A stretch of 53,321 nucleotides of DNA, filler included, from Diploschistes diacapsis (lineage: Eukaryota), in assembly GCA_023645945.1 (NCBI GenBank). It is 4 parts of 4 records of this genome, joined end to end, with 100 filler letters (N's around TTAATTAATTAA, not from the genome) between each part and the next. Parts side by side here need not be neighbours in the genome. Positions count along the whole stretch, not along the records: positions 26,724 to 39,977 come from JALAIB010000675.1; 3 more parts are not named here. One strand, given 5' to 3'. This document shows positions 13,264 through 40,077 of the stretch, in pieces (positions within the stretch are counted from its first letter, which is position 1; each line of letters starts with the position of its first letter). The notes beneath the pieces were generated by a model, which saw nothing but the letters and a program-made list of their open reading frames with translations, was not told where the DNA came from and did not search any database. The translations under genes were made by a program, and so were the position numbers.

Positions 13264-13363
13264 NNNNNNNNNNNNNNNNNNNNNNNNNNNNNNNNNNNNN
13301 NNNNNNNTTAATTAATTAANNNNNNNNNNNNNNNNNNNNNNNNNNNNNNNNNNNNNNNNNNNN
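13264..13363. other. Artificial contig spacer
   Basis: N44-TTAATTAATTAA-N44, with stops in all six frames. Confidence 0.98.
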
Positions 13364-26623: not shown

Positions 26624-26723
26624 NNNNNNNNNNNNNNNNNNNNNNNNNNNNNNNNNNNNNNNNNNNNTTAATTAATTAANNNNNNNNNNNNNNNNNNNNN
26701 NNNNNNNNNNNNNNNNNNNNNNN
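26624..26723. other. Artificial contig spacer
   Basis: N44-TTAATTAATTAA-N44. Confidence 0.98.
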
Positions 26724-28150
26724 CCTTTTTGTCCATGGGCTTTTGGGACCGTTGAAGGCCATATACAACGAGGCTGTGTGCGGCGTTCAATAATAATTTC
26801 CTACTGAAATTTGCTTCTGCCATGATGATCAGCTCATTTTTCTCCTCCCTTTTCAATTGCCGGCGTCTTCCTATTCCTCATTGCAACCTTTCGATTTTTT
26901 CTTTTCCCGAAAGAGCAAATGATGTGAATAGAAAAAAGCCATAGCTTTGCTGCTATCTCCACCGTTATGCAGCTGCGTGAGGTACAGCACTCGTACTACG
27001 AGAACAACCCAACCACAAAAGTGATAGCTACAATCTGGTGCACGGGCCAGTGGTCTGCGAATTTGCAAGAACCCAGAAAGAGTAGTTATTTACTTACCTA
27101 GTACTTGCTTCCATTACTTCCATCGTGCTACTATACCAGTATGCGTAGCAGTACGACTTCTAACAAGCACTGGGTTGAACGGAATCTTTAGGACGAAAGT
27201 ACCCGTACTGTTTTGTATCAAAAGAGTTGAGTAGACGTTCGGCCCAGGCCGAGTGGCGCTTCAGGAGAAGAAGAGTCGTAATTCTAGTGAGCATCGCAGG
27301 GATGATCAACGCGCGTAACCGAGACCCCTCAGTCGACTGGTACTTAGAAACTAGCTCTTTCTCTAAGTAGGTTGGTGGGATGTGGCATGGGACGTGCTGG
27401 AATATACTTGGTATGGATGGAACCCATCGCATGGCATGGCGTGGGCGGGTCAGTCAGTACATGCGTTGTGACTCGTGCACACAGCACACACTTCCAGCCC
27501 CCTTGTGCCTGTTGTAAAGTCACGTCGAGCCAGGCGGCAAGTACCTTGAACTCTTTCGCAGATAGACTTTCCTATGGAGCTAATCGAGACTTGAGTTCGA
27601 ACTTCGAGCTAGCTATAAGATATGAGGACTTGGCCGAACATCCCAACCCCTTTGGGAGCACGTCAGCTGCGACGCTCGGATGGGCGAAGATCAGGGGTAA
27701 AGCGAACCTTAGTAGTGAACTTTATACGCTACCAGGCTAGGCTTTTGATACCAGCTTGGTCGTAAAGCCCGGTTTTTTAGGTTTGTGATCGACTATGCAT
27801 TGACCCAGGGCAATGATTTGCCGGATGTGCACGGATCCCAGAATGGACCTTGAAAGCCGTGTCGAGACAGAATAAGCTTAGACCGTAACTGCTTCAGCCT
27901 TTGCTGGCACTGCTCATTGAAAAAGGAAGCACGTTTTGGATTTGACGTGCGGTTTCATTCTGCAGTACAAAATGCACCCACCTAAAGAACCAGGCACTAG
28001 AGTACAAGCGAGAGCACGTGAGTATAACTATAACGTTACCTGTGTGATACTCATCTCTCATCTCCTCTTTACAGAGTACGTCGTATCCATGGAGGTTGTG
28101 GTAATGGAGATAAGAGGGTTGAAGGAACTCTCTGAGCCCATCTGCTTGGC

Positions 28151-28182
28151 ATGCTATGCTATGCTATGCTATGCTATGCTAT
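28151..28182. repeat. (ATGCT)6 microsatellite
   Basis: Read directly from the sequence. Confidence 0.95.
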
Positions 28183-30627
28183 CCGAGCTTTTCTGATTTC
28201 AAGTTACTCCCATCAGAATCACCCGGCTCTTGGTCCGGACCAGCTTCGTTAGCTCTTCCATCCCTTAACCCGAACAAATTGCTCTCTTCCTACGTATGAC
28301 TATGACGTCAAGTGCGATAACGGTCTGTGTTCAGGCTACAAGTAAGTAAGTGCCCAGGTACTTTTGTACGTGGGATGGGCACCGCCTTAATCTGGCATAC
28401 TTCCGTATTCCTGATCTCTCGAATCCTATATCCAAAAAACTTTTCGGAATAGAGGGAAATGCTCCGTCCGACCCGACCCACCAAGGTTATTTGGTTGGCT
28501 CTGTCCATTGAGCATGCCTTCCTGTGCCTTGTGCTCCAGACACCAAAGTTCCCCAGTCCACGAGATTTGGAGCGTAGATTTCAATAAATTTTTGTTTTTA
28601 ATAACAAACTTTAATAATTACGTAGGTGTTGCTGCTGCCAAAGCAGGCGTGGATGATGTCGGTGACGTCCCCAATGTAGTCGGAGTTAGATGGCTGAAGT
28701 CCGAGGAGGAAGAAGTATGGATTTATGCGTAGTAGGTCTCCTTAGGGCGAAGGCTCAAGAAATCATGCTTGTAAGCGCCACGTTTCACTTCAGAGGTGTT
28801 ACCTCCCGTCTCCCCCCGTCTTTTAGCAAGTGGGTTTCTCGACGGGCAGAGGCAGAGAAGAGTCTGTCTGCCCATCGGCCATTCATGCCTCTCATCGTAG
28901 CGTTTGCCAACCACTCCGATTTCGGATGGCTCATTCCATTGGTTCTCATAAGCTGCGAGGTTTGTATCCGTCATTCACTAACAATAGAGGGCAACACCAA
29001 GTGCAAACGGCCCTTTTACTAAAGAGGCAGGTAGCTGTGAATGCAGCGCAGTAACCAAGTTAACGATCTGAGTCATGAGAACACCAACGGTACCCAAACA
29101 AGCGTCAGGATCTTCCAAGATTGCCTTCTTTGGCATGCTGGACTCAGAAATCAGCTAAAATCGATATCCCCCCGTCATCCTCTTCCGGCCTAAACGGTGA
29201 TTATCAATTTCTCATGGAAATAAAATGGCATACGCCACGGTTGCCCAGGCCTTGTTAGGCTGCAGATCTTCGGCATGAGCGTTACGCCTATGCCAAACTG
29301 CCAGGCTTGGCTTCCTAAGGTAACTCATTTCACGAAAAGTAGTCTGAAATGAGTCATCGAGTCCTGATCAAGTAGATATAGCCACGTTAACAAGTGCAGA
29401 GACTGAAGGGCAAGATTTCATTGTAACCCCCGAGCGTATTGGTATGGTATTTTATGTCTGCACAGACATGCCCAGCCCTAGGGTTATGATACAGTAAAGA
29501 AAAGAGCTGCTCAAGGAATAGGACGTTGCTTCTACTTCTGTTCATCTTTGCGAGTTGTACAAAAGCTGGGTACAAAGCTTTTTGCACGCCTTCCCAAATT
29601 ACCCCTCAATTGGGAAGGCCTTCCATATGCTAACTCAAGGCTCCATATGCTAACTCAAGGCACTCCCGGGTCCCAAGGCATACTCCGTCAGTGTATGAAT
29701 TACTGCGCGATGCTGCGGCCACCAGCCATTCATCGCTCGAGGTCGTCTTTGGCTGCAGATTGTATGTACAGTGTTGCGTATGCAGCCAACTTGAGACTGA
29801 ACGGGGGGACTACACCTCACGAGCCACCCTGGAGAAAGGAAACGATCACATGCAGTTGAGTTGAGCGATGTATTTCCTGGGGCACTCTGCATCGGAGCAG
29901 TGGTATTGGACCTGGCGCAGTTCAGAACACCGGACAGAAAGCTCCCCCCCTATCCAAGCCCCCTGATAACGCAACTTCGCATGCAAGACTTATCGTTGGA
30001 CCTTTTGAGAGCATTTCCCAAGAACAGAGAACGCTTGGTCGAAGCTTGGAATAAATCCCGCTTAACATGTACCGATGAGCTCATGGTCGTTCAGTATGCT
30101 ACGATGGTGTAGTAGAAAAGCTGCATCCACCACCCTATGTTGATTCCAACAAAGCGCCGGCAGCTGCGTTCATCGCCCAGACCAGACATTACGATTAAGC
30201 TGTGTGTGATGTGAAGCATACTTCTTCCACCAGTTCCTTTGGTAAAGTGCTCTTGCTTAGGTAGCTGTTTCTGCATAGACGGGTTGCAATACCAATTGGG
30301 TGTGCCTCTGGCATAAAGACAGGTTTTTCCGTTCCATGGAAGGTGGACAGTAAAGAGTTTTCGCATTTGTCGCGTTCTCAACAGAACCAACCAAAACAAA
30401 GTATACTACCCGCAGTACGAACGAAGAGCAACCAGAACACCTTGATTCTTTGCGAAGCAGAACTTAAATCTTATTCCCAGTTCATAAAACTTGTACATAA
30501 ACAATCTTCTCGACGAGGCTACCCCTCTGAGTGTTGATCAACCGCATGCAAGCGAAGATCCTATTCCCAATAGCCGCCCGTTTCTTTGAACTCATCGCGC
30601 CATTTCCAAAGACGTAGGGTAAAGGAA

Positions 30628-31455
30628 CTACGTAGTTGGGTTGGGATTCATCTAACAGGAACTCAGCACACTCTACCAGAACAAACAACGGGACAGATAT
30701 GATCGTGGGAGCTCCTTACCTTGCGCTTGCCACCAGTCAACGTAACGTTTACGAAGCGACGGGTGTATGTGACACGCTTCTTGGCGCGGCCTTTGAAATG
30801 GGACAATGAGAAAATTGTACTTCTTACATGATTGCAAGATTTACCTTTTGGTGTCTTCTTCTTTTCTTGTGGCTCAACTTTCGGCTTTGACTGGATTAGT
30901 ACTGGGCCCGCTATCATAACGCCAAGGCAGTACCGTTTGGGACTTGACTTTCCCTGCACGCTGAGAATAGAGTCAGCAAGATCAGGAAGATAGGTTATCG
31001 CGCGGGACATCAGTATATAGTGTCGGACCACCCTATGAAGCCTAGTTTCGCTTCGAGGAGTCGCAGATGTGCTTTTTCCGCTTCGAAATATGGAGGTATG
31101 ACTTCAGGCGTGTAGCCCAAGGAGTTTCTTTGCTGCTGAAAGCCCAATATTGATGTCACCTTGCGCTACTTGCCCCAAGAGTTTGATGATTGCGCAGAGG
31201 GATAAGAGACGTGTTGTCAAACCACCCTTGAAATCCCAATACCACGTTAAATAGCCTTAGGAAACCAGTCCCTGCTCCTCGAAAATTTGTTTTCTTCCCA
31301 CACATCGCGACTCCGGAAAACTTGGCCTCCAGTCGATCCGACACTCAATACTGATGCCTCTCACATGAGGATGTCCTTACCGCCAGTGATCCGTGCACCT
31401 TACCTGCAATGAATTAGTATCAATGAGCTAAAGAAGAAATCAAATACGTACCCAT
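30628..31455 (-). CDS. RPS30: 40S ribosomal protein S30 (eS30), 62 aa; exons 31455-31452, 31403-31381, 30960-30934, 30884-30845, 30790-30720, 30651-30628
   Basis: The spliced product is [62 protein letters not shown]. All five introns are GT-AG. Confidence 0.97.
31008..31356 (-). promoter_or_regulatory. Long RNA stem within RPS30 intron 2
   Basis: Three nested complementary segments: 31008-31027/31337-31356, 31037-31049/31317-31329 and 31057-31071/31301-31314. Confidence 0.75.
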
Positions 31456-31753
31456 GATGGATAGAGAGTATTAGCGACGACTTGATCGAAGTTTCTGGTG
31501 GTAGAAATAGGAACTACTATGTGGCCATGATGAGGTCAGCTTTTAATCTTTTGAATCCTTCTTGAAATATCGCATGAGCATAACAGGGCCGGTGATAAAA
31601 GGCCCTTCATAGATACGCAGAAGGATCTTTAAAACTCACCTCGAGATAAACGGATAGGGTGTTTTTTTTGCAGTTGCTGTATAATGAGCAGATTGGCAGT
31701 TGAGGTTTGGACTTCTAGCGTGCATTCATGAGTCAGCGGGGGAGCGGGCTGCG

Positions 31754-31762
31754 AAGCCCTAA
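31754..31762. promoter_or_regulatory. AAGCCCTAA motif, candidate ribosomal-protein promoter element
   Basis: About 300 bp upstream of the RPS30 ATG. A GCCCTAA-type motif is known upstream of ribosomal protein genes in filamentous ascomycetes. This is a single short match. Confidence 0.45.
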
Positions 31763-32003
31763 GCGAGATTTGCCGGAGAAACAACAATTCCGTTCTGCAT
31801 ATAAGAAGCTTTGGCTCTCTCCCATTAACTCGTCCTGCCTGTTTACGAAGAGCAGTATCGTGATACAAGAAGGTGGACGACAAAAAGAGCTTTGTAATTG
31901 AGAGACGGAATTTGTAGATATAATGTTTCATAAGCCGCTGAGTACCACCCTGGTAGCTTCGGATACGCTTAAGATGCCACCTCCGCCCTTCCTAACCCTC
32001 TAT

Positions 32004-32861
32004 TCATAGATCGAGAACAGGCTGCAGCCTAAGCACCTTTCCCTCCTCCTCCTCCTCCTCCTTATCCCTCCCTTTAGATCCCCCTCTGTTGGCCCATTCC
32101 TCATACCCCTCCTCACCTACTAAGCGATATTCCTCCCATTCCTCCCTCTTGACCCCCTGCCACTCCTGCAACGGGATCCACCCAATCCTCGCCCTGTCCC
32201 CGAACCCACCAAAGAAATACACCTCCTGCACGACTAACCTCCCCCACCAGCTCTCATGTATATCCGTACCAGGCTCCCAGATGCTGGCTTCTGGGTGTGT
32301 GCGGAGGAAACATTCCCGTACACTGTACTCCTTCACTTCTGCATCAGATAGTCTCTCAAGGCTTCCAATTAGCGAGAATCGCGGGAGATTAGCGGGTAGA
32401 TACGCCCACGGATCATCTGTCCTTTGCGTCGCATTGGTGGGCACGTGGTAGCGTAACGAGAGCGTAATATTTGAGCCGGCAGCTGCATTTTTCATCGTCG
32501 TCGCTATCGTCACGCCGAGGATAGTGGGGTCGTAGATATTGGGCGATGGACAAGATGCATAATATTCCATTAGACCGATGGGGGCACCCGCGACGTCTGG
32601 AGGGCGATTCTCGAGCACGGTAAGTTCTTCCGTCGAGGAGTCATTTTGAGCAGAGGGAAAGATGGTCGAGAGGGTCGCGATGTTGGAGATATGGAGGATC
32701 CGGCGGGCTTGGATTGCGGATTCATGTATCGACGGAATGCGTTGGGCGGATTTGGTAGTAGGTGGGGGATTTGAGAAGATTGATTGCGGGCGTGCTAGAG
32801 TTGCGCTACCAAAAAGAGAATGGAGGAAGAAGATAAGTGCAGACGTGAAGGCGAGATGCAT
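32004..32861 (-). CDS. CREG-like / pyridoxamine 5'-phosphate oxidase-related split-barrel protein, secreted
   Basis: Signal peptide MHLAFTSALIFFL. Motifs IATLSTIFP, PIGLMEYYASC, PANLPRFSLIG, CFLRTHPEA, HESWWGRLVVQEVYFFGGFGDRARIGWIP. Single exon. Confidence 0.85.
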   Translation of the reverse strand: MHLAFTSALIFFLHSLFGSATLARPQSIFSNPPPTTKSAQRIPSIHESAIQARRILHISNIATLSTIFPSAQNDSSTEELTVLENRPPDVAGAPIGLMEYYASCPSPNIYDPTILGVTIATTMKNAAAGSNITLSLRYHVPTNATQRTDDPWAYLPANLPRFSLIGSLERLSDAEVKEYSVRECFLRTHPEASIWEPGTDIHESWWGRLVVQEVYFFGGFGDRARIGWIPLQEWQGVKREEWEEYRLVGEEGYEEWANRGGSKGRDKEEEEEEGKVLRLQPVLDL

Positions 32862-33014
32862 GGCAGTTAGACTGAGGCCGTATGGGAAGAAATAAGTGGA
32901 GAAGCGTAGGATGAAAGGGACTGAAATAGACGTTGACTCAGCCAACGGTGCAAAAGGTTCTTGAGGTCATGCGTCTTTGGGTGGCCGGTCACTTCAAACG
33001 AGCCAGAACTCTAC

Positions 33015-33382
33015 CCCCCCGTTTCTCACCAAAATCGATCAACTCTATATTTAAATATCTTCCCAGCAATGTGCCAAATCAAAAATCCAAAACATTATAG
33101 AGAATTTTAGAAGCATTATGCATACAAGAAATCTGTTTCGAATTTTCCCGAATTTTTTGAATACCTAAGATGGGCGTAAACACTTAAATAAATGGTCCCC
33201 ACCAAAAATCGCGGTTACGATGCGGCAACTATACCCTCGGGTTTTCGTTGACGTCTTACGAGCCCCCACAGAAGTTTTAAAAAAATACAAACAAAATAAG
33301 AATAAGTTAAAGCTTTAAAAAGCTGCTGGACTTTTCTTCAAAAATTTAAAATCTTTTTCGCGGAGATATAAGAAATGGGGGG
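33015..33382. mobile_element. Possible MITE, about 370 bp and AT-rich
   Basis: Termini CCCCCCGTTTCT and AGAAATGGGGGG (11/12 inverted match) bound a sharply AT-rich noncoding block. No clear TSD. Confidence 0.4.
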
Positions 33383-33507
33383 AGCCTAACTACTTTTGGC
33401 CTAGTACTGTATCTACGCCCCGTCGGCCTCAGCATATTCTTGTCCTGTGTTGGGATAACAGTGCAGACAACCAACATACTCTATTCATCTCTCATACGGT
33501 ATGATAC

Positions 33508-35385
33508 CTATGTACAATCCCTGGTCTCGGTGGCCGAAGACTTCACCTTTCTCTTCCAGTCCCTCATTGCGATTTCCTCCCCTGCTAGGGCACTGCCGAT
33601 AATACTGGCTTCCACATTCTCCCACCAGCCCTTGATATTGGCCAGCCAAACCCAATAAGCCGCTCCAGCCGCAAGCACGCCTAGACCTGCAGCTGGATAT
33701 GCGTAGTATGGAAATCTACCCTCCGCTCCATATCCGCCCTTTGGTCGGATCCAAGGCAGGACAAGAAGCGTGAAGTTACTGACGAGGAAAAGCAGCACCA
33801 CAACCTTCTTCGCGGGCTTCGGACTACTCCATTGCTCTGTAGGTTCGTTCTGCAAGTAGAGGAGACCACCGGCTACGAAGACTGAGATAACAGAGACGGG
33901 GTACCCTCCGAGTTCCACAAGGAACTCGTAAATCTGTCCTGGCGGCGGCACAATAATCACAGCGACGCTGACGACCCAATGCAGGAATAGCGCTGCCGCG
34001 GGTGTACCATAAGGTCTGCTTGAAGCCCAGAATGAACTGAAGGGCAAAAGGTCGTCCTTGGCAAACTCTTGATTGACCCGAGCTTGCGCAAAGGACGTAG
34101 CGGCTATTGAGCCAAACGCTGAGAGAATAACAAGTAGCGGAAGTAACCTCGAGCCGATAATGTTTCCAAAGACGTTGGTGAAGAAGTGCCCTCCCACAAT
34201 AAGGCCTGAAGACGCAAAGTCTGATCTCTCGACAGCACAGAAGTAAGCGACGTTGACTAGAATGTACGCCGCGGAAACAATTAGGAGCGCGCTCGGCGCT
34301 GCGACTGATAACGTTCGCACTGGCCGACGGACTTCCGATAAGACCTGGTTCGCAGTATTATACCCACGAAAACAGTAAAGAGCCTTGAGCAAGGCCGAAG
34401 CCAGAGCGTACGGCTGGCTCGTAGTCCCAGAGAATATAGAAGAAAAGTTTCGTTTGTAGAAAGCCACCTCTGAGGCTGTCTCACCAATGCGCAGGGGTAT
34501 GCTGGCCAGACCGCTCGCAATGATTGTCGCAATGATGAGCATCTTGATCACGCCTAGGAGGTTGATTAAGCGTAAGCCCAAGGCTGGAGAACGCGCATGG
34601 ATGACGCAAGCAGCGGTGACAGCCAATACCGCTAGACTCCTAACGTTCCACCTGTTTGCTTCAAGCCCCAGCGCGTACATAAAGTACTCCCCGAGCACGA
34701 TACAGTTCGGTGTGCTGAACCCGAGAAGCACAACATAGCTCATGAGTACACAGGGCGCAAGAAACCTCGGTCTCCTGAATATTCGTTCAAGATAGACCTT
34801 TTCACCGCCTGACTTGGGTAAAGCGGTGCCAAGGTCAAGGTATACGGCAAGCCCACAGAACGAGATTACCGCACCGAGGATCCATACCACGAAGGCCATG
34901 CCAACCGAGCCAACATTGAAGAATATCGAAGATGGAACGGAGAATATGCCAACGCCGATTGTTTTCCCGATGATAATATTGATGACGGAGAAAGTTCCTA
35001 GCTTCGCAGTATCGTCATAATGCGTATTTCGGAGTAAGAATGGTGTATTGACGGCTGGGCTTTGTGATAAGAAAGTGGTGTTTTCAGCTGGCGAGCCCAA
35101 CCTGCTGGAATTGGTACTTTCGACTTCGACAGGCGCAGGTGAGTTTTGATGCGCTTTGGTCCGGGACGGCGACGCATGTGTTTTCATTGACGAGAGTGTC
35201 GGCCAAGGGCTAAGAAGAGCCTGCCGATCATCACTTCGATATGCACTCGCGCCAGAGGATGTCGCGCTTCTTGGGGTCCTGGGCGTTCGTCGCGGCGTTA
35301 CTGGCGACTCGGCGTACGAGCAAGCGGGATACCCACGTGGGATAGAGGATGTGATAATGGCGATTCCAAGAAAGTTTTTCGACAT
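33508..35385 (-). CDS. APC-superfamily (LAT/MUP1-like) amino acid or amine permease, 625 aa
   Basis: Intact ORF with many hydrophobic segments. Motifs IIGKTIGVGIFSVPS, YLDLGTALPKSGGEKVYLE, GYNTANQVLSEV and ARVNQEFAKDDLLPFS. Confidence 0.9.
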   Translation of the reverse strand: MSKNFLGIAIITSSIPRGYPACSYAESPVTPRRTPRTPRSATSSGASAYRSDDRQALLSPWPTLSSMKTHASPSRTKAHQNSPAPVEVESTNSSRLGSPAENTTFLSQSPAVNTPFLLRNTHYDDTAKLGTFSVINIIIGKTIGVGIFSVPSSIFFNVGSVGMAFVVWILGAVISFCGLAVYLDLGTALPKSGGEKVYLERIFRRPRFLAPCVLMSYVVLLGFSTPNCIVLGEYFMYALGLEANRWNVRSLAVLAVTAACVIHARSPALGLRLINLLGVIKMLIIATIIASGLASIPLRIGETASEVAFYKRNFSSIFSGTTSQPYALASALLKALYCFRGYNTANQVLSEVRRPVRTLSVAAPSALLIVSAAYILVNVAYFCAVERSDFASSGLIVGGHFFTNVFGNIIGSRLLPLLVILSAFGSIAATSFAQARVNQEFAKDDLLPFSSFWASSRPYGTPAAALFLHWVVSVAVIIVPPPGQIYEFLVELGGYPVSVISVFVAGGLLYLQNEPTEQWSSPKPAKKVVVLLFLVSNFTLLVLPWIRPKGGYGAEGRFPYYAYPAAGLGVLAAGAAYWVWLANIKGWWENVEASIIGSALAGEEIAMRDWKRKVKSSATETRDCT

Positions 35386-36206
35386 GGCGGATGTTTGCGA
35401 TTTGAGAATGAAATTACACGAAGTTACTCACATATGCGTCAGAGGCATTGAAAGTCCCGAGGACAAGAAGACTGAAAGGCTTGAACATTCACCAAAGATA
35501 CTGATGCATACTACGAACTTGGAAGGAAGGTAAACAAAGAAAACTGCTTAGAGGCAGAACATTGTTCTGGCCGACAAAAGGAAGGGGAGAGACTGAACAA
35601 CAGAACAATGAAAGAACAAAGATTCTATCCTTACTAGATTTTCAGAAGCTCTAGAGGGATTCAGTGGTCCTCGGATCACCCGAAAACCCATCGAACGAAG
35701 TTGTATGTCGAAGTATGAGGTGGATATTAGGAATTAAATGGACGAGGAAGAATCTTGGCACGGTCACAAGCATCTTACTTTATGCTGGCAGACTTTGTTT
35801 CAGCCAAAGGCCCAAACGTTTCGTGTTTCCTGCTACACGCGGAGTTTTTCTATAGTGCCTTAAGCAACACTCGCGATAACATAGAGCACAACTTTGATAC
35901 TAACTGATAGCCCAGAGTGAATAACACCTGTTGTACCAAGAAACTCATGTTGCAAAATCCCCGGGGGTTTTCTTTCCCCCCTCCCTCGACCACAAAGACA
36001 TATCGGTATAGAATACCATACATCAGCAGATCTGTGCGTGCTGCTGGTAACGCTCCCTTTCCTCGTCATTTTAACCAAGCTGCAACACCACGTCACCAAT
36101 CATGCAACACAGGACAGGCTGCGCAATTACCAAGGTATCGTTGGCAGTCTTCGCTCCCAGCAGTCGCTAAACACCGCGCCAAAGAGTCAAGACCCGAATT
36201 TGTTCC

Positions 36207-37905
36207 TTAGACCATCTCGATGTACCGTTTCACCTCCCTAGGAGCATTCAGTATACTTGAAAGAAGAGATACGAAGAACATGCACGTACCAATCAGTAAC
36301 TGCCTCGTCCCACAACCTTGCCTCATGTTCTCTGGTCCCACCAAAGTGTTCCACGAAATCATCTCCAAAGACCTCCCTTGCCACACTGTCTCTTCGCATG
36401 AATGTTGCTGTAGCTTCTTTGAGGGACTTCGCTAGTCGCTTGCCCCTGTCTGAAGTTCCACCAACATCTTCGCCCTTTCCCAGAGGTGGCAGACTGACTT
36501 CCATCTTCTTCTCTACGCCTCGCCAGCCAGTTGCTAGAATCGCTGCTAAAACAAAGAACGGATTGGCATCCGCGCCTGGGACTCTAATCTCGAAACGAGT
36601 TGCTTTCGGAGAACCGGTTGGCGGCGCAATCAGGCGGATCGACGCTGCACGATGTTCCAAGCCCCAGGAGACCGTCACGGGGGCCCAGAAGTTTTCTACT
36701 AGCCGTTTATAGGAATTAACGGTAGGCGCCACAAGTGGCATGATATCCGGTAAGCCATCCAGTAGTCCTGCGAGAAATTGGCGACCGATATCAGAAACGT
36801 ATGCCAAATCTTGAAACGGAGGCTTGTCGTCCTTTGAGCCTCGATAGAATAGGTTATTGCCCGACTCGTCGACAAGGGAGACATGCATATGACCAGAGTT
36901 GCCTGGCAGGCCTTCTTTGGGCTTCGCCATAAAGCAGGGTGTTATGCCGTGTTTTGAACTCGTCGCTTTGACGACATATCTGGGGAAGCTGATCAGCAAA
37001 GCAAAATGGAGTTGAAATTACTTACTTGAACATTGCGGCCTTATCACCCATCTCTTTGATCTCTCCATATTCCAGAGCCTGCAGCCTCAATTAGTATTTA
37101 ACCAAGTGTCTCAGACCACTCGGGCGCATACCGCTTCAAAAACGCCGGGTCCACTTTCTGTGTGCCAGCTTTCAATTCCACACCTGAAACTTGAGCAAGC
37201 GTCGAAAACGCTATAGTAGTAATCTTGATTCAGCACCGGTCTGGTCAGACTGTACCCCGTCATGCCCTCTGTCAAGGACGGCAGGTTTTGAGCTGGGTTG
37301 TCTTGGAGAAACCTTGCAGGCGATGGTTCACCCTTTCGATTTGTTTGTGTGTCCGAACTGGCTGGCACTCTGAAGTGATAGAATTCGTATTCAGCTGCAT
37401 AGCATTGTGTCAGTCGAAAGGTTTTCTTGAGCTTGCGGTTTGCTAACAACCCCGACTACAGACCTCCTGCTAAAGCCCTATACCCGGACCTTTCCAACCT
37501 CTCAGCAGCTGTCCTCAGCAAGCTCCTGGGGCATGTGCATATGGGCCGTTGGGTATCCGGGTCGAGGAAGTTAACCAAGAAGAAAGGTACATTGTCCTCC
37601 CACGGTATCCTCCTGAACGTGCTCAAGTCCGGTACGGCGATTATGTCTCTATAGCCATTCTCCTTATTACTAATCTTTAGCTCCCGTGTATAGAACTGAT
37701 CATGCATATCCCAGCCAAAGATGACGGAGCAGAAGCCGAATCCCTCCTCAGCAATGGATAGGAACTTTTCCTTAGCCATGAGCTTGCCTCGTAATATGCC
37801 GTCCACATCAATGCCGGCGACCTTGACTCTGGTATCATGTTGGAGCAGAGTTGACAGCGAATCGACTGTGAGGTCACCGAGCGATGTCGCAGACGCTGAA
37901 GCCAT
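36207..37905 (-). CDS. Glutamine synthetase-like ligase (GSI-like, gamma-glutamyl-amine ligase type); exons 37905-37464, 37394-37132, 37078-37026, 36979-36290, 36237-36207
   Basis: Motifs DVDGILRGK, AEYEF, HTESGPGVFE, FMAKP..G.PGNSGHMHVSL, NSYKRLV, WGLEHR.ASIR and RFEIRVPGADANP. Four GT-AG introns give one frame ending WEVKRYIEMV*. Confidence 0.92.
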
Positions 37906-38391
37906 CCTTCGTCGACGATAGAGGGAGCCGCGAAAGAGCAGTGTCTGGAAAGCTGAGAGCAGATGGCCAGGGGGGCTCCTGAAGACTCGTTAAGTTGCAG
38001 TATGCAAGCATATGAAGAATGGCGCGGAAAATATAGAGAAATTAAAGAAAGCACAATAGACGAGCCGGTGGGGAACAAGGAGCTAGGATTAGCTTGGAGC
38101 TGGAGCCCAGGTATAGTGCCCAGTTAGAGCTGGAGCTTGGAGTTATAGGTATTCTACCATACTAGCATGCAGCCATGCACATCTCCCTCCACTCCACTGG
38201 GGCTTCTCACCATCATCGTCGTCCATTCATTCATTACTAAGCTGTCCAGCGTCTCCTCAGATACCCGATCGCGGCCCGCTATTAATCCGAGCGATGTTAG
38301 TCGAAATGCACGTGCAGGGCACGGGCTGGAATGATTGGTTCGCTACATAGACGCTTACATTGAAGTACATATATAGTTAGGGTTTCTTGTG

Positions 38392-38566
38392 TTATCTGGC
38401 TTTCGTGCCTGCTCCATCGTTGAGTACAAGAGAAACCAGGGATTGGAAAGCGCTTGACAAGGCAAACATCATTATCATGTTGAACAACACTCCTTGCAGA
38501 GGTTTGTCCGATCCAGACGGTGAAATCCCGGAGCAATCGATAAGCAATCGATAAGCCCTAGCGGGG
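38392..38566. promoter_or_regulatory. Cluster of HGATAR (AreA/NIT2-type) sites and one SYGGRG (CreA-type) site in the bidirectional promoter
   Basis: TTATCT at 38392, TTATCA at 38472, tandem CGATAAG at 38538 and 38549, GCGGGG at 38561. Confidence 0.45.
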
Positions 38567-38705
38567 TTGCTTGCGTTAAGTCGGTTCGCCTGCCACCGCC
38601 TCCCACCATAACTTCCCACGCAGACCTTTAAAGTCGCGACACAAGGGACAATTCACCCCATCCCCCTACTGTTAGTATCGAACAAACACCGGGCCAGACT
38701 ACAGA

Positions 38706-39914
38706 ATGGGATCTTTGAGCCATTCGGGACGCCTTGAAGGCAAGAATGCCATTATCACTGGAGCAGCTGGGTGCGTGAGAAACAAAAAAGCTTACACCGG
38801 CAGGTCTTACCTGGCAAGAGCACACAAAGAATCCTACTCCAATGACCAGCGGTGTCAACGAGTGGAATCGATGTCGGTCTCTCGAGACCTTCAACAGCTC
38901 ACTCAAGTTCGCGTGCAAGACCTCTTGCTAACATTGCCGCCGTTCAACACAGTGGCATCGGCTTCGAGACAACCATCCTCTTCCTCCGCGAAGGCGCTTC
39001 CGTGCTCATGGCCGACATCTCCGAACCTGCCCTTGCAAAAGCGAAGACCAAGCTCGGTGAAATCCTTCCTTCGCACCCCGGCCGCGTTGAGACGGCCCAT
39101 GTTGACGTGTCCAACGAGTCTTCCGTAAGCGACATGGTCACGCGACTCGACTCCTGGGGCGGTGTAGACGTCATTTTCAACAACGCCGGGATCATGCACA
39201 GTCAGGACGCGGATGCCATCGACACGCCCGAGAAGATCTGGGACCTGACCCACAACATCAACGTCAAGGGCGTGTGGTTTGGGTGCAAACACGCGGTGCT
39301 GAGCATGCGGAAGCATGGCAAGAAAAACGCCAGCGTGATCAATACCGCCAGCGTTGTTGCACTGGTGGGTTCGGCGACGCCGCAACTGGCATACACGGCG
39401 AGCAAGGGCGCCGTGCTTGCCATGACGCGGGAGCTGGCCATCGTGCATGCTAGAGAAGGGTTTAGGTTCAACTCGCTCTGCCCGGCGCCCCTGAAGTAGG
39501 ATTCTTTTCTTGCCCATGGTGACTCGCACACTTCCCTTCCCTTTTCCCTCGCCCATGCCGACGGCCCTCTGCGATTCAGATTGAACGTGACCGCTGACCG
39601 TGCAAACAGCACGCCGCTCCTCCAAGATTGGTTGGGCGACGACCAAGCCAAGCGCCACCGCCGTGAGATTCACTTTCCGACCGGCCGCTTCGGCGAGGCC
39701 ATCGAACTGGCCCAGGCCGCTCTTTTCTTAGCCAGCGACGAGAGCAGCTTCGTGAACGCGACCGATTTCGTTGTTGACGGTGGCATGACAAAGGTGAGCC
39801 TTGATCCGGGCCCCCATGATGTGTATATGCACCTCGAGATGGCTAATGTTTGAGCAGGCGTACGTCACGCCCGAAGGCCCTGCTCTACCCCCGCCCACAA
39901 ACTTTGGCACATGA
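38706..39914 (+). CDS. Short-chain dehydrogenase/reductase; exons 38706-38770, 38953-39495, 39610-39793, 39858-39914
   Basis: Motifs TGAAGGIG, NNAG, NTAS, YTASK (YxxxK) and FLASDESSFVNATDFVVDGG...AYVTP. Three GT-AG introns. Confidence 0.93.
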
Positions 39915-39977
39915 GGGTGTTTTGTGTGCCCGTTTACTCTTTTTGGGTCATTAGAGAGGCTTTGGGGAGTTCTTTTC

Positions 39978-40077
39978 NNNNNNNNNNNNNNNNNNNNNNN
40001 NNNNNNNNNNNNNNNNNNNNNTTAATTAATTAANNNNNNNNNNNNNNNNNNNNNNNNNNNNNNNNNNNNNNNNNNNN
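39978..40077. other. Artificial contig spacer
   Basis: N44-TTAATTAATTAA-N44. Confidence 0.98.

Follow-up and report, generated by a model that had tools for sequence, protein, structure and literature searches.

An interrupted 53-bp helix in an oversized, lineage-specific intron of RPS30 in Diploschistes diacapsis: a candidate zipper stem

Intron 2 of the RPS30 (eS30) gene of Diploschistes diacapsis contains an interrupted 53-bp helix, which our analysis confirmed to be real and well beyond chance. With moderate confidence, we propose that this is a zipper-type closing helix that would keep a recently gained, oversized intron spliceable, and that it would owe its origin to local duplication and its maintenance to the sense RNA, at the RNA level. 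Under this proposal, intron 2 would be a lineage-specific, oversized spliceosomal intron of an ascomycete RPS30 gene; the long-range helix would close off its middle 227 nt, the spliceosome would see an effective ~69 unpaired nt, the size of the sibling introns, and the helix would act as a constitutive 'zipper stem' splicing enhancer. Intron 2 is then a structured long intron of an already known kind.

The gene and its intron 2 helix

The window (the whole stretch of DNA analysed, 53,321 nt with filler) is made of four contigs joined artificially, and the eS30/RPS30 gene lies on the third (26724-39977). A single sequencing run, labelled lichen metagenome, contained every word sampled from the window. 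Its five coding-region introns (48, 420, 49, 54 and 68 nt) are every one GT..AG, and intron 2 is 6-9 times as long as its four siblings (48-68 nt). The original prediction had named intron 2 of RPS30 as the host of a structured element, and the spliced coding sequence, which encodes a 62-aa eS30, agrees with that assignment. Transcript positions (p) are given as 31381 minus the window coordinate.

13264-13363, 26624-26723 and 39978-40077: runs of N around the TTAATTAATTAA linker; contig joints, across which features are not readable
30628..31455, minus strand: eS30/RPS30 coding region; six exons, spliced CDS of 189 nt giving 62 aa and ending MNPNPTT-stop
31455-31452, 31403-31381, 30960-30934, 30884-30845, 30790-30720 and 30651-30628, minus strand: RPS30 exons, from the spliced-CDS translation
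30961..31380, minus strand: RPS30 intron 2; 420 nt, GUAAGG...CAG, phase 0, at the Ala9/Arg10 boundary
31300..31357 (p24-81), minus strand: 5' arm of the closing stem; carries the 5' strands of all three helices of the original prediction
31007..31072 (p309-374), minus strand: 3' arm of the closing stem, from the fold, duplex energy and ensemble probabilities
31358..31368 (p13-23) with 30998-31006, minus strand: outer stem extension; 8 pairs, mean probability 0.57
31073..31299, minus strand: loop enclosed by the stem, 227 nt; no recognised RNA family, predicted sub-structure not kept in relatives

Several other features of the window were recorded. RPS30 intron 1 (48 nt, 31404-31451) splits the Gly2 codon after ATGG (exon 31452-31455). 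Among the matches listed, 89 of 97 other fungal loci matching the codon pattern have ATGG directly before the match, and in 7 of the 8 exceptions a TACTAAC-type branch site lies a short way upstream, as would fit a yeast-type intron following the ATG (start codons were not located in these). A probable 5'-UTR intron of ~120 nt (31519-31641, minus strand; GUGAGU ... GCUGAC ... AUAG) lies upstream of the start codon. Directly upstream of RPS30 is a 320-aa ORF (32004-32966, minus strand). An ORF near the gene encodes a methionine-permease homologue whose nearest clusters come from Ascomycota. Another contig (1892-2041) carries a 34-nt inverted repeat made of GGATC/GATCC-type words; its arms are 88% complementary and lie 82 nt apart.

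In the MFE structure of intron 2, p13-81 is joined to p309-383 by 61 pairs, 52 of them Watson-Crick and 9 G.U. The stem core contributes 53 pairs (7 being G.U) and is interrupted by a 2x2 loop, two 1x1 mismatches (A.A and C.C), a 1x2 loop, a 5-nt bulge and two single-nucleotide bulges. The three nested helices of the original prediction are all present, both in the sequence and in the MFE structure, as three blocks of this one stem, and their estimated total of about 45 bp falls somewhat short of the pairs in the core. In a 781-nt pre-mRNA context, the mean ensemble pair probability is 0.985 for H1, 0.862 for H2 and 0.988 for H3. A separate helix between the 5' splice site (GUAAG) and CUUGC, present in the intron-only MFE structure, was rejected, its probability in the pre-mRNA context being 0.0.

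The stability of the intron exceeds that of its shuffled counterparts on the sense strand, where the MFE reaches −144.0 kcal/mol while shuffles average −119.8 (z = −3.69, none of 100 shuffles folding equally well; a second sense-strand shuffle estimate gave z = −3.88), whereas the antisense strand has an MFE of −118.1 (z = −1.11, with 13 of 100 shuffles as good). These values confirm the earlier claim that the G-U pairs work on the transcript strand. The duplex energy of the arms is −75.7 kcal/mol in the sense orientation versus −60.8 for the antisense arms. Searching the 53-kb window with the 20-nt outer arm at up to three mismatches returned its partner as the sole match (0 expected).

The mismatches of the stem also differ by strand. 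If a DNA palindrome decayed neutrally by transitions, which was our null, G.U and A.C appositions should be equally frequent on the transcript. The transition-type non-Watson-Crick appositions in the core are 7 G.U versus 0 A.C (binomial p = 0.008), and including the outer extension the ratio is 9 to 1 (p = 0.011); the remaining mismatches are transversion-type, and the base composition is balanced (G+U 215, A+C 205). The 7:0 bias, unexpected under neutral decay, gives the strongest indication in this analysis that the sense RNA needs to pair. Transcription-associated mutation bias could account for part of the G.U excess. The z-scores by strand, the pair probabilities and the G.U bias all bear out the view that the intron is closed by a stem belonging to the sense strand and acting at the RNA level.

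Splice-site geometry

Two candidate branch sites were considered.

30972..30976, minus strand: CUGAC, the likely branch site and a CURAY match; its A is at 30973 (p408), and the 3' splice site is 12 nt away
30981-30985, minus strand: second CURAY match, CUGAU (A at p399), read from the sequence

Both were picked as matches to CURAY, which we take to be the branch-site consensus, and the branch point is a predicted one. The donor-to-core-stem linker is 23 nt (with the stem starting at p24), or 12 nt if counted from the weak extension at p13. From the stem end (p374) to the candidate branch-point A there are 33 nt (p408) or 24 nt (p399), for a total linker of 56 or 47 nt with the branch point placed by the CURAY motif. 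Given these linkers of 23 and 33 (or 24) nt around the stem, the effective intron would have about 69 unpaired nt (23+46), compared with 48, 49, 54 and 68 nt for the sibling introns.

This geometry resembles that of the zipper stems of S. cerevisiae ribosomal-protein introns (RPS17B, RPL7A and others; Rangan et al. 2025, PMC12350175). In that report, zipper stems have linkers of at least 10 nt and at least 20 nt and a total linker of 42-85 nt, as well as a helix of 6 bp or more whose helix confidence, taken from in vivo probing, is high. The intron 2 stem, taken from an in-silico fold and a predicted branch point, falls within all three linker limits (23 + 33/24 nt), and its helix has 53 bp with in-silico probabilities of 0.86-0.99. 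The weak outer extension would probably be open during splicing; if formed, it would break the minimum linker of a zipper stem. With its 53 bp and −75.7 kcal/mol, the predicted D. diacapsis stem far exceeds the yeast zipper stems (PMC12350175) in length and stability. The host here is a filamentous or lichen-associated ascomycete whose other introns are ~50-70 nt, and the intron is a recent lineage-specific gain. Some yeast zipper stems, such as that of RPL28, do not promote splicing, according to the same report (PMC12350175). For intron 2, we infer that the helix forms in vivo, helps splicing and is kept by selection.

The original prediction also held that the stem brings the donor near the branch point. 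This is true geometrically, the shortest path from 5' splice site to branch point in the MFE structure being 4, but it is not special by itself: 19 of 100 shuffled introns match or better this value, and we dropped the shortest-path measure as non-discriminating.

Lineage specificity, persistence and origin of the intron

A metagenome scan with an exon-5 pattern yielded at least 113 fungal loci, 93 of them with both the KVHG and the AGKV anchor; among the 20 loci without an anchor, some are cut short and at least three (L076, L084 and L109) are not RPS30. Among the matches listed, the KVHG-AGKV interval is intronless in 88 of the 93 and the other five have introns of 54-214 nt elsewhere, with none of these 93 other fungal RPS30 loci carrying a phase-0 intron at Ala9/Arg10. 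A degenerate exon-2-plus-donor pattern had 0 matches in the metagenome collection, and blastn with intron 2 found no match in any of the at least 113 loci. The same upstream neighbour gene occurs in 22 loci among the at least 113 matches listed, which indicates that these 22 are orthologous and that the gene pair is widely conserved in ascomycetes; the loci listed include no close relative, the best neighbour-gene identity being ~62%.

We read 13 odd loci individually; the Ala9/Arg10 phase-0 position occurs in none of them, and L045 comes nearest, its 214-nt intron lying 2 nt downstream of the intron-2 site. All intron positions of the D. diacapsis gene are offset from those of L045 by at least 2-3 nt. 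The L045 intron has an internal stem of ~17-20 bp (CACUUCCAGACC / GGUCUGGAAGU), the donor being ~47 nt and the branch point ~45 nt away from it, with a total linker slightly above the 85-nt zipper limit. The 426-nt intron of L078, which follows KSQ, has a GC-rich inverted repeat near both ends (GTGTCGCTCGCTCGCTC / GAGCGAGCGACAC), although its fold is no better than those of shuffles.

Excess stability is lacking in the other long fungal RPS30 introns, those of L078 (426 nt, z = −1.0), L044 (336 nt, z = −0.1) and L045 (214 nt, z = −1.4). Therefore, a closing stem of such strength is peculiar to the D. diacapsis intron and is no rule for long RPS30 introns.

To follow the intron among relatives, we compared contigs of four runs (X2, X3, X4 and X5) with the window at a likeness of at least 80%. 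X2 (organism A) spans the whole intron, including both arms, X3 spans 31010-31239 and 31290-31422, X4 (a rock metagenome) spans 31331-31478, and X5 covers none of it. Three other runs thus contain the intron in related organisms, and among the runs compared there is no contig that joins across the intron, skipping it. X2 has 1 substitution in the 124 core-stem nt, at the innermost G.U, versus 7 in the 227-nt loop, and a minor X2 contig carries a 1-nt deletion that removes the bulged A at 31036. X3, at a depth of ~2x, has three changes in the core and one in the extension, of which two stay paired (U-A to U.G and C-G to U.G) and two break the pair (C72-G to C.U and U61-A to C.A). No compensatory double changes were found in the stem in X2 or X3, which are close relatives only. 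Substitution density is 4 in 124 nt for the stem versus 15 in 227 nt for the loop, which is not a significant difference (Fisher p = 0.22).

At loop positions paired in the MFE structure, 4 of 4 variants in X2 and 5 of 6 in X3 break the predicted pair, and since 9 of 10 are thus disruptive, the loop is without a conserved fold. X2 and X3 share four differences from the window in the loop (31106, 31113, 31182 and 31297); either the window base at these sites is derived or X2 and X3 are mutually closer, probably.

X2 depth over the two arms (85.3 and 80.9) matches that over flanking unique sequence (83 and 82.7), and of 31 matching X2 contigs only one fits partly, at the end of the stretch, with no loose end at a stem boundary. 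The intron element therefore appears to be single-copy in the X2 organism, within the limits of contig data. In the 53-kb window, no second arm copy was found at up to three mismatches, and blastn of the intron gave nothing else below E 0.2. The original prediction had allowed that the arms might be those of a multicopy MITE; a second copy was found neither in the window nor in the at least 113 fungal loci nor in the X2 contigs (at least 80% likeness), a search for a multicopy introner-like or MITE family in which old, diverged copies would be missed.

The intron carries internal repeats, including the following.

31180..31232 (p149-201), minus strand: degenerate internal copy of p342-393 (30988-31039), that is, of the 3'-arm region and its downstream flank

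The local alignment of this copy scores 27 against a shuffle mean of 18.9, a score reached by 3 of 200 shuffles, and over the whole intron short direct repeats occur at 4 offsets against a shuffle mean of 0.45. Together, the degenerate copy and the excess of direct repeats suggest, from the sequence, that the intron grew by internal duplication.

These repeats also suit the explanation that competes best with ours, namely that the stem is a neutral relic, left by a foldback or MITE-like element, a degenerate introner-like element or a local inverted duplication, and tolerated rather than selected. We consider this explanation possible but doubtful. It fits the lineage-specific position of the intron (88 of 93 loci intronless between the anchors and 5 with introns elsewhere, among the matches listed, 22 loci with the same upstream neighbour being true orthologues), the two pair-breaking changes in X3, and the observation that removing the repeat leaves a normal ~70-nt intron with all signals intact. 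There are also precedents in two reports, in which newly gained fungal introns are long and stably structured by prediction (PMC3609843) and proliferating TIR-bearing introns are known in Hypoxylaceae (PMC8469720). Nevertheless, the lack of a second copy tells against a neutral relic, as does the 7:0 bias toward G.U over A.C, which a neutrally decaying DNA palindrome should not show. Nor do the stem boundaries show a target-site duplication: neither p13/p383 nor p24/p374 has a flanking direct repeat, and the inverted repeats are sub-terminal rather than terminal, beginning 23 nt and ending 46 nt inside the intron, so that TIRs accompanied by a target-site duplication are not what is found here. 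Finally, the Hypoxylaceae palindrome WTTCTAGAAA has no match within 30961-31380 at up to two mismatches.

Intron 2 can also be compared with two known kinds of fungal intron. Like the introner-like elements of Dothideomycetes (van der Burgt 2012; Collemare 2013, PMC3609843), intron 2 is a new gain, long (420 versus 48-68 nt) and unusually stable in its predicted structure (z = −3.7); but the near-identical multicopy family that defines those elements was not found, and no similarity appeared in the at least 113 fungal loci. The sister (stw)introns of Hypoxylaceae (Fekete et al. 2021, PMC8469720) share with it inverted repeats of 45-65 nt, double-stranded intron RNA and the lack of a flanking target duplication. 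Those introns (PMC8469720) differ in being multicopy and 93-207 nt long, with terminal repeats (45-55 nt) and WTTCTAGAAA, whereas RPS30 intron 2 is single-copy and 420 nt long, with sub-terminal repeats and without the palindrome. Our searches found no literature on introners in Lecanoromycetes and nothing specific on the combination of MITE, intron and hairpin. The inverted repeat probably arose by local (inverted) duplication within the intron and not by insertion of a multicopy transposon.

Alternative pairings, hosted RNA and significance

The original prediction had read the stem as part of an autoregulatory element, in which it would compete with a shorter helix.

31275..31283 with 31052-31060, minus strand: 9-bp alternative helix; chance-level, pair probabilities 0.0

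This helix is indeed in the sequence, but it is at chance level, a perfect helix of at least 9 bp occurring in 27 of 100 shuffles, and each of its pairs has an ensemble probability of 0.0. The AAACUC(C)UUGGG repeat noted in the loop is likewise present, but one 13-mer repeat at up to two mismatches turns up in 37 of 100 shuffles. The best decoy is the duplex of loop p216-300 with the 3' arm (−40.3 kcal/mol, matched by 3 of 200 shuffles). A duplex of the 5' arm with the loop was rejected as chance-level, 101 of 200 shuffles matching it.

An autoregulatory element of this kind, in which excess eS30 binds the intron or a competing fold, splicing is inhibited and the retained-intron mRNA is degraded, seems to us improbable. 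Yeast offers precedents in RPL7B, RPL18B, RPL28 and RPS22B (10.1101/2025.03.14.643126 and PMC13232506), and RPL7B intron 1 in particular (Granas et al., 10.1101/2025.03.14.643126), which joins a zipper-stem enhancer with a mutually exclusive, protein-binding structure, resembles RPS30 intron 2 in having a closing stem in a ribosomal-protein intron and candidate alternative pairings of one arm. Retention of intron 2 would, as the sequence reads, lead to a stop codon after 11 intron codons, and the duplex of p216-300 with the 3' arm outdoes that of most shuffles. However, the main stem (about −75.7 kcal/mol) is ~35 kcal/mol more stable than this best decoy, the named competitor has zero weight in the ensemble, and the 5'-arm decoy is no better than chance. 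In contrast to RPL7B, alternatives in RPS30 intron 2 are thermodynamically negligible, and a mutually exclusive fold of appreciable population was not found (probability 0.0; best decoy −40.3 kcal/mol). The stem is also far more stable than the regulated RPL7B type, and in yeast RPL7A the more stable zipper stem is the unregulated one, by the same account (10.1101/2025.03.14.643126). The list of the stem's internal loops contains no tandem G.A or K-turn-like motif, and the literature search found no paper on eS30 autoregulation. Because the element is missing from the 93 other fungal RPS30 genes (among the matches listed), it cannot be a conserved eS30 feedback site. Autoregulation through the competing helix is therefore unsupported, given a chance-level competitor with zero ensemble weight and so stable a main stem, and nothing points to the intron 2 stem being an autoregulatory switch.

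A related idea is that the stem is the 'on' state of a regulated splicing switch, in which loop decoys would pair with the arms first, during transcription, and a trans factor (eS30 or a stress-responsive protein) would decide the outcome. The decoys would be p226-236, which resembles the start of the 5' arm, and p149-201, which resembles the 3'-arm region. We regard this idea as quite improbable. If it were true, the intron would be a newly evolved feedback device of a lichen fungus, arising through internal duplications in a recently gained intron.

Least probable of all, in our view very unlikely, is that the intron hosts a non-coding RNA, either a snoRNA in the loop or a hairpin that serves as a Dicer substrate and yields small RNAs: ribosomal-protein introns of fungi are frequent snoRNA hosts and the helix amounts to a 53-bp imperfect dsRNA, but an Rfam search of both strands at E up to 10 matched nothing in the intron, no C-box-like heptamer occurs on the sense strand at up to one mismatch, close relatives differ in the loop by 15 substitution events plus indels, and 9 of 10 variants at its MFE-paired positions break the predicted pair. 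The hosted RNA raised by the original prediction thus found no counterpart among known families or, as to C/D and Rfam, in C/D boxes with a terminal stem. In PMC12350175, yeast intron alignments give snoRNAs a conservation of 72.3-83.6%, against 50-60% for most intron sequence. Two Rfam hits near the gene but outside the intron, DAOA-AS1_1 (24.3 bits against a gathering threshold of 50) and snoR71 (17.4 bits against 40), were rejected.

A constitutive zipper-type closing helix thus remains our preferred reading. To our knowledge, zipper stems have been characterised nearly solely in budding yeasts, where long introns of ribosomal-protein genes are the norm. Here, a short-intron ascomycete has one recent intron oversized by 6-9 times, and the closing helix brings its unpaired length down to that of the neighbouring introns. 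Should splicing not depend on the stem, it would be an ordinary inverted duplication inside an intron. If it is needed, it would offer a natural test of how a long intron, newly acquired by a highly expressed gene, can continue to be spliced, and it would tie intron gain (introner-like, structured young introns) to structural splicing enhancers.
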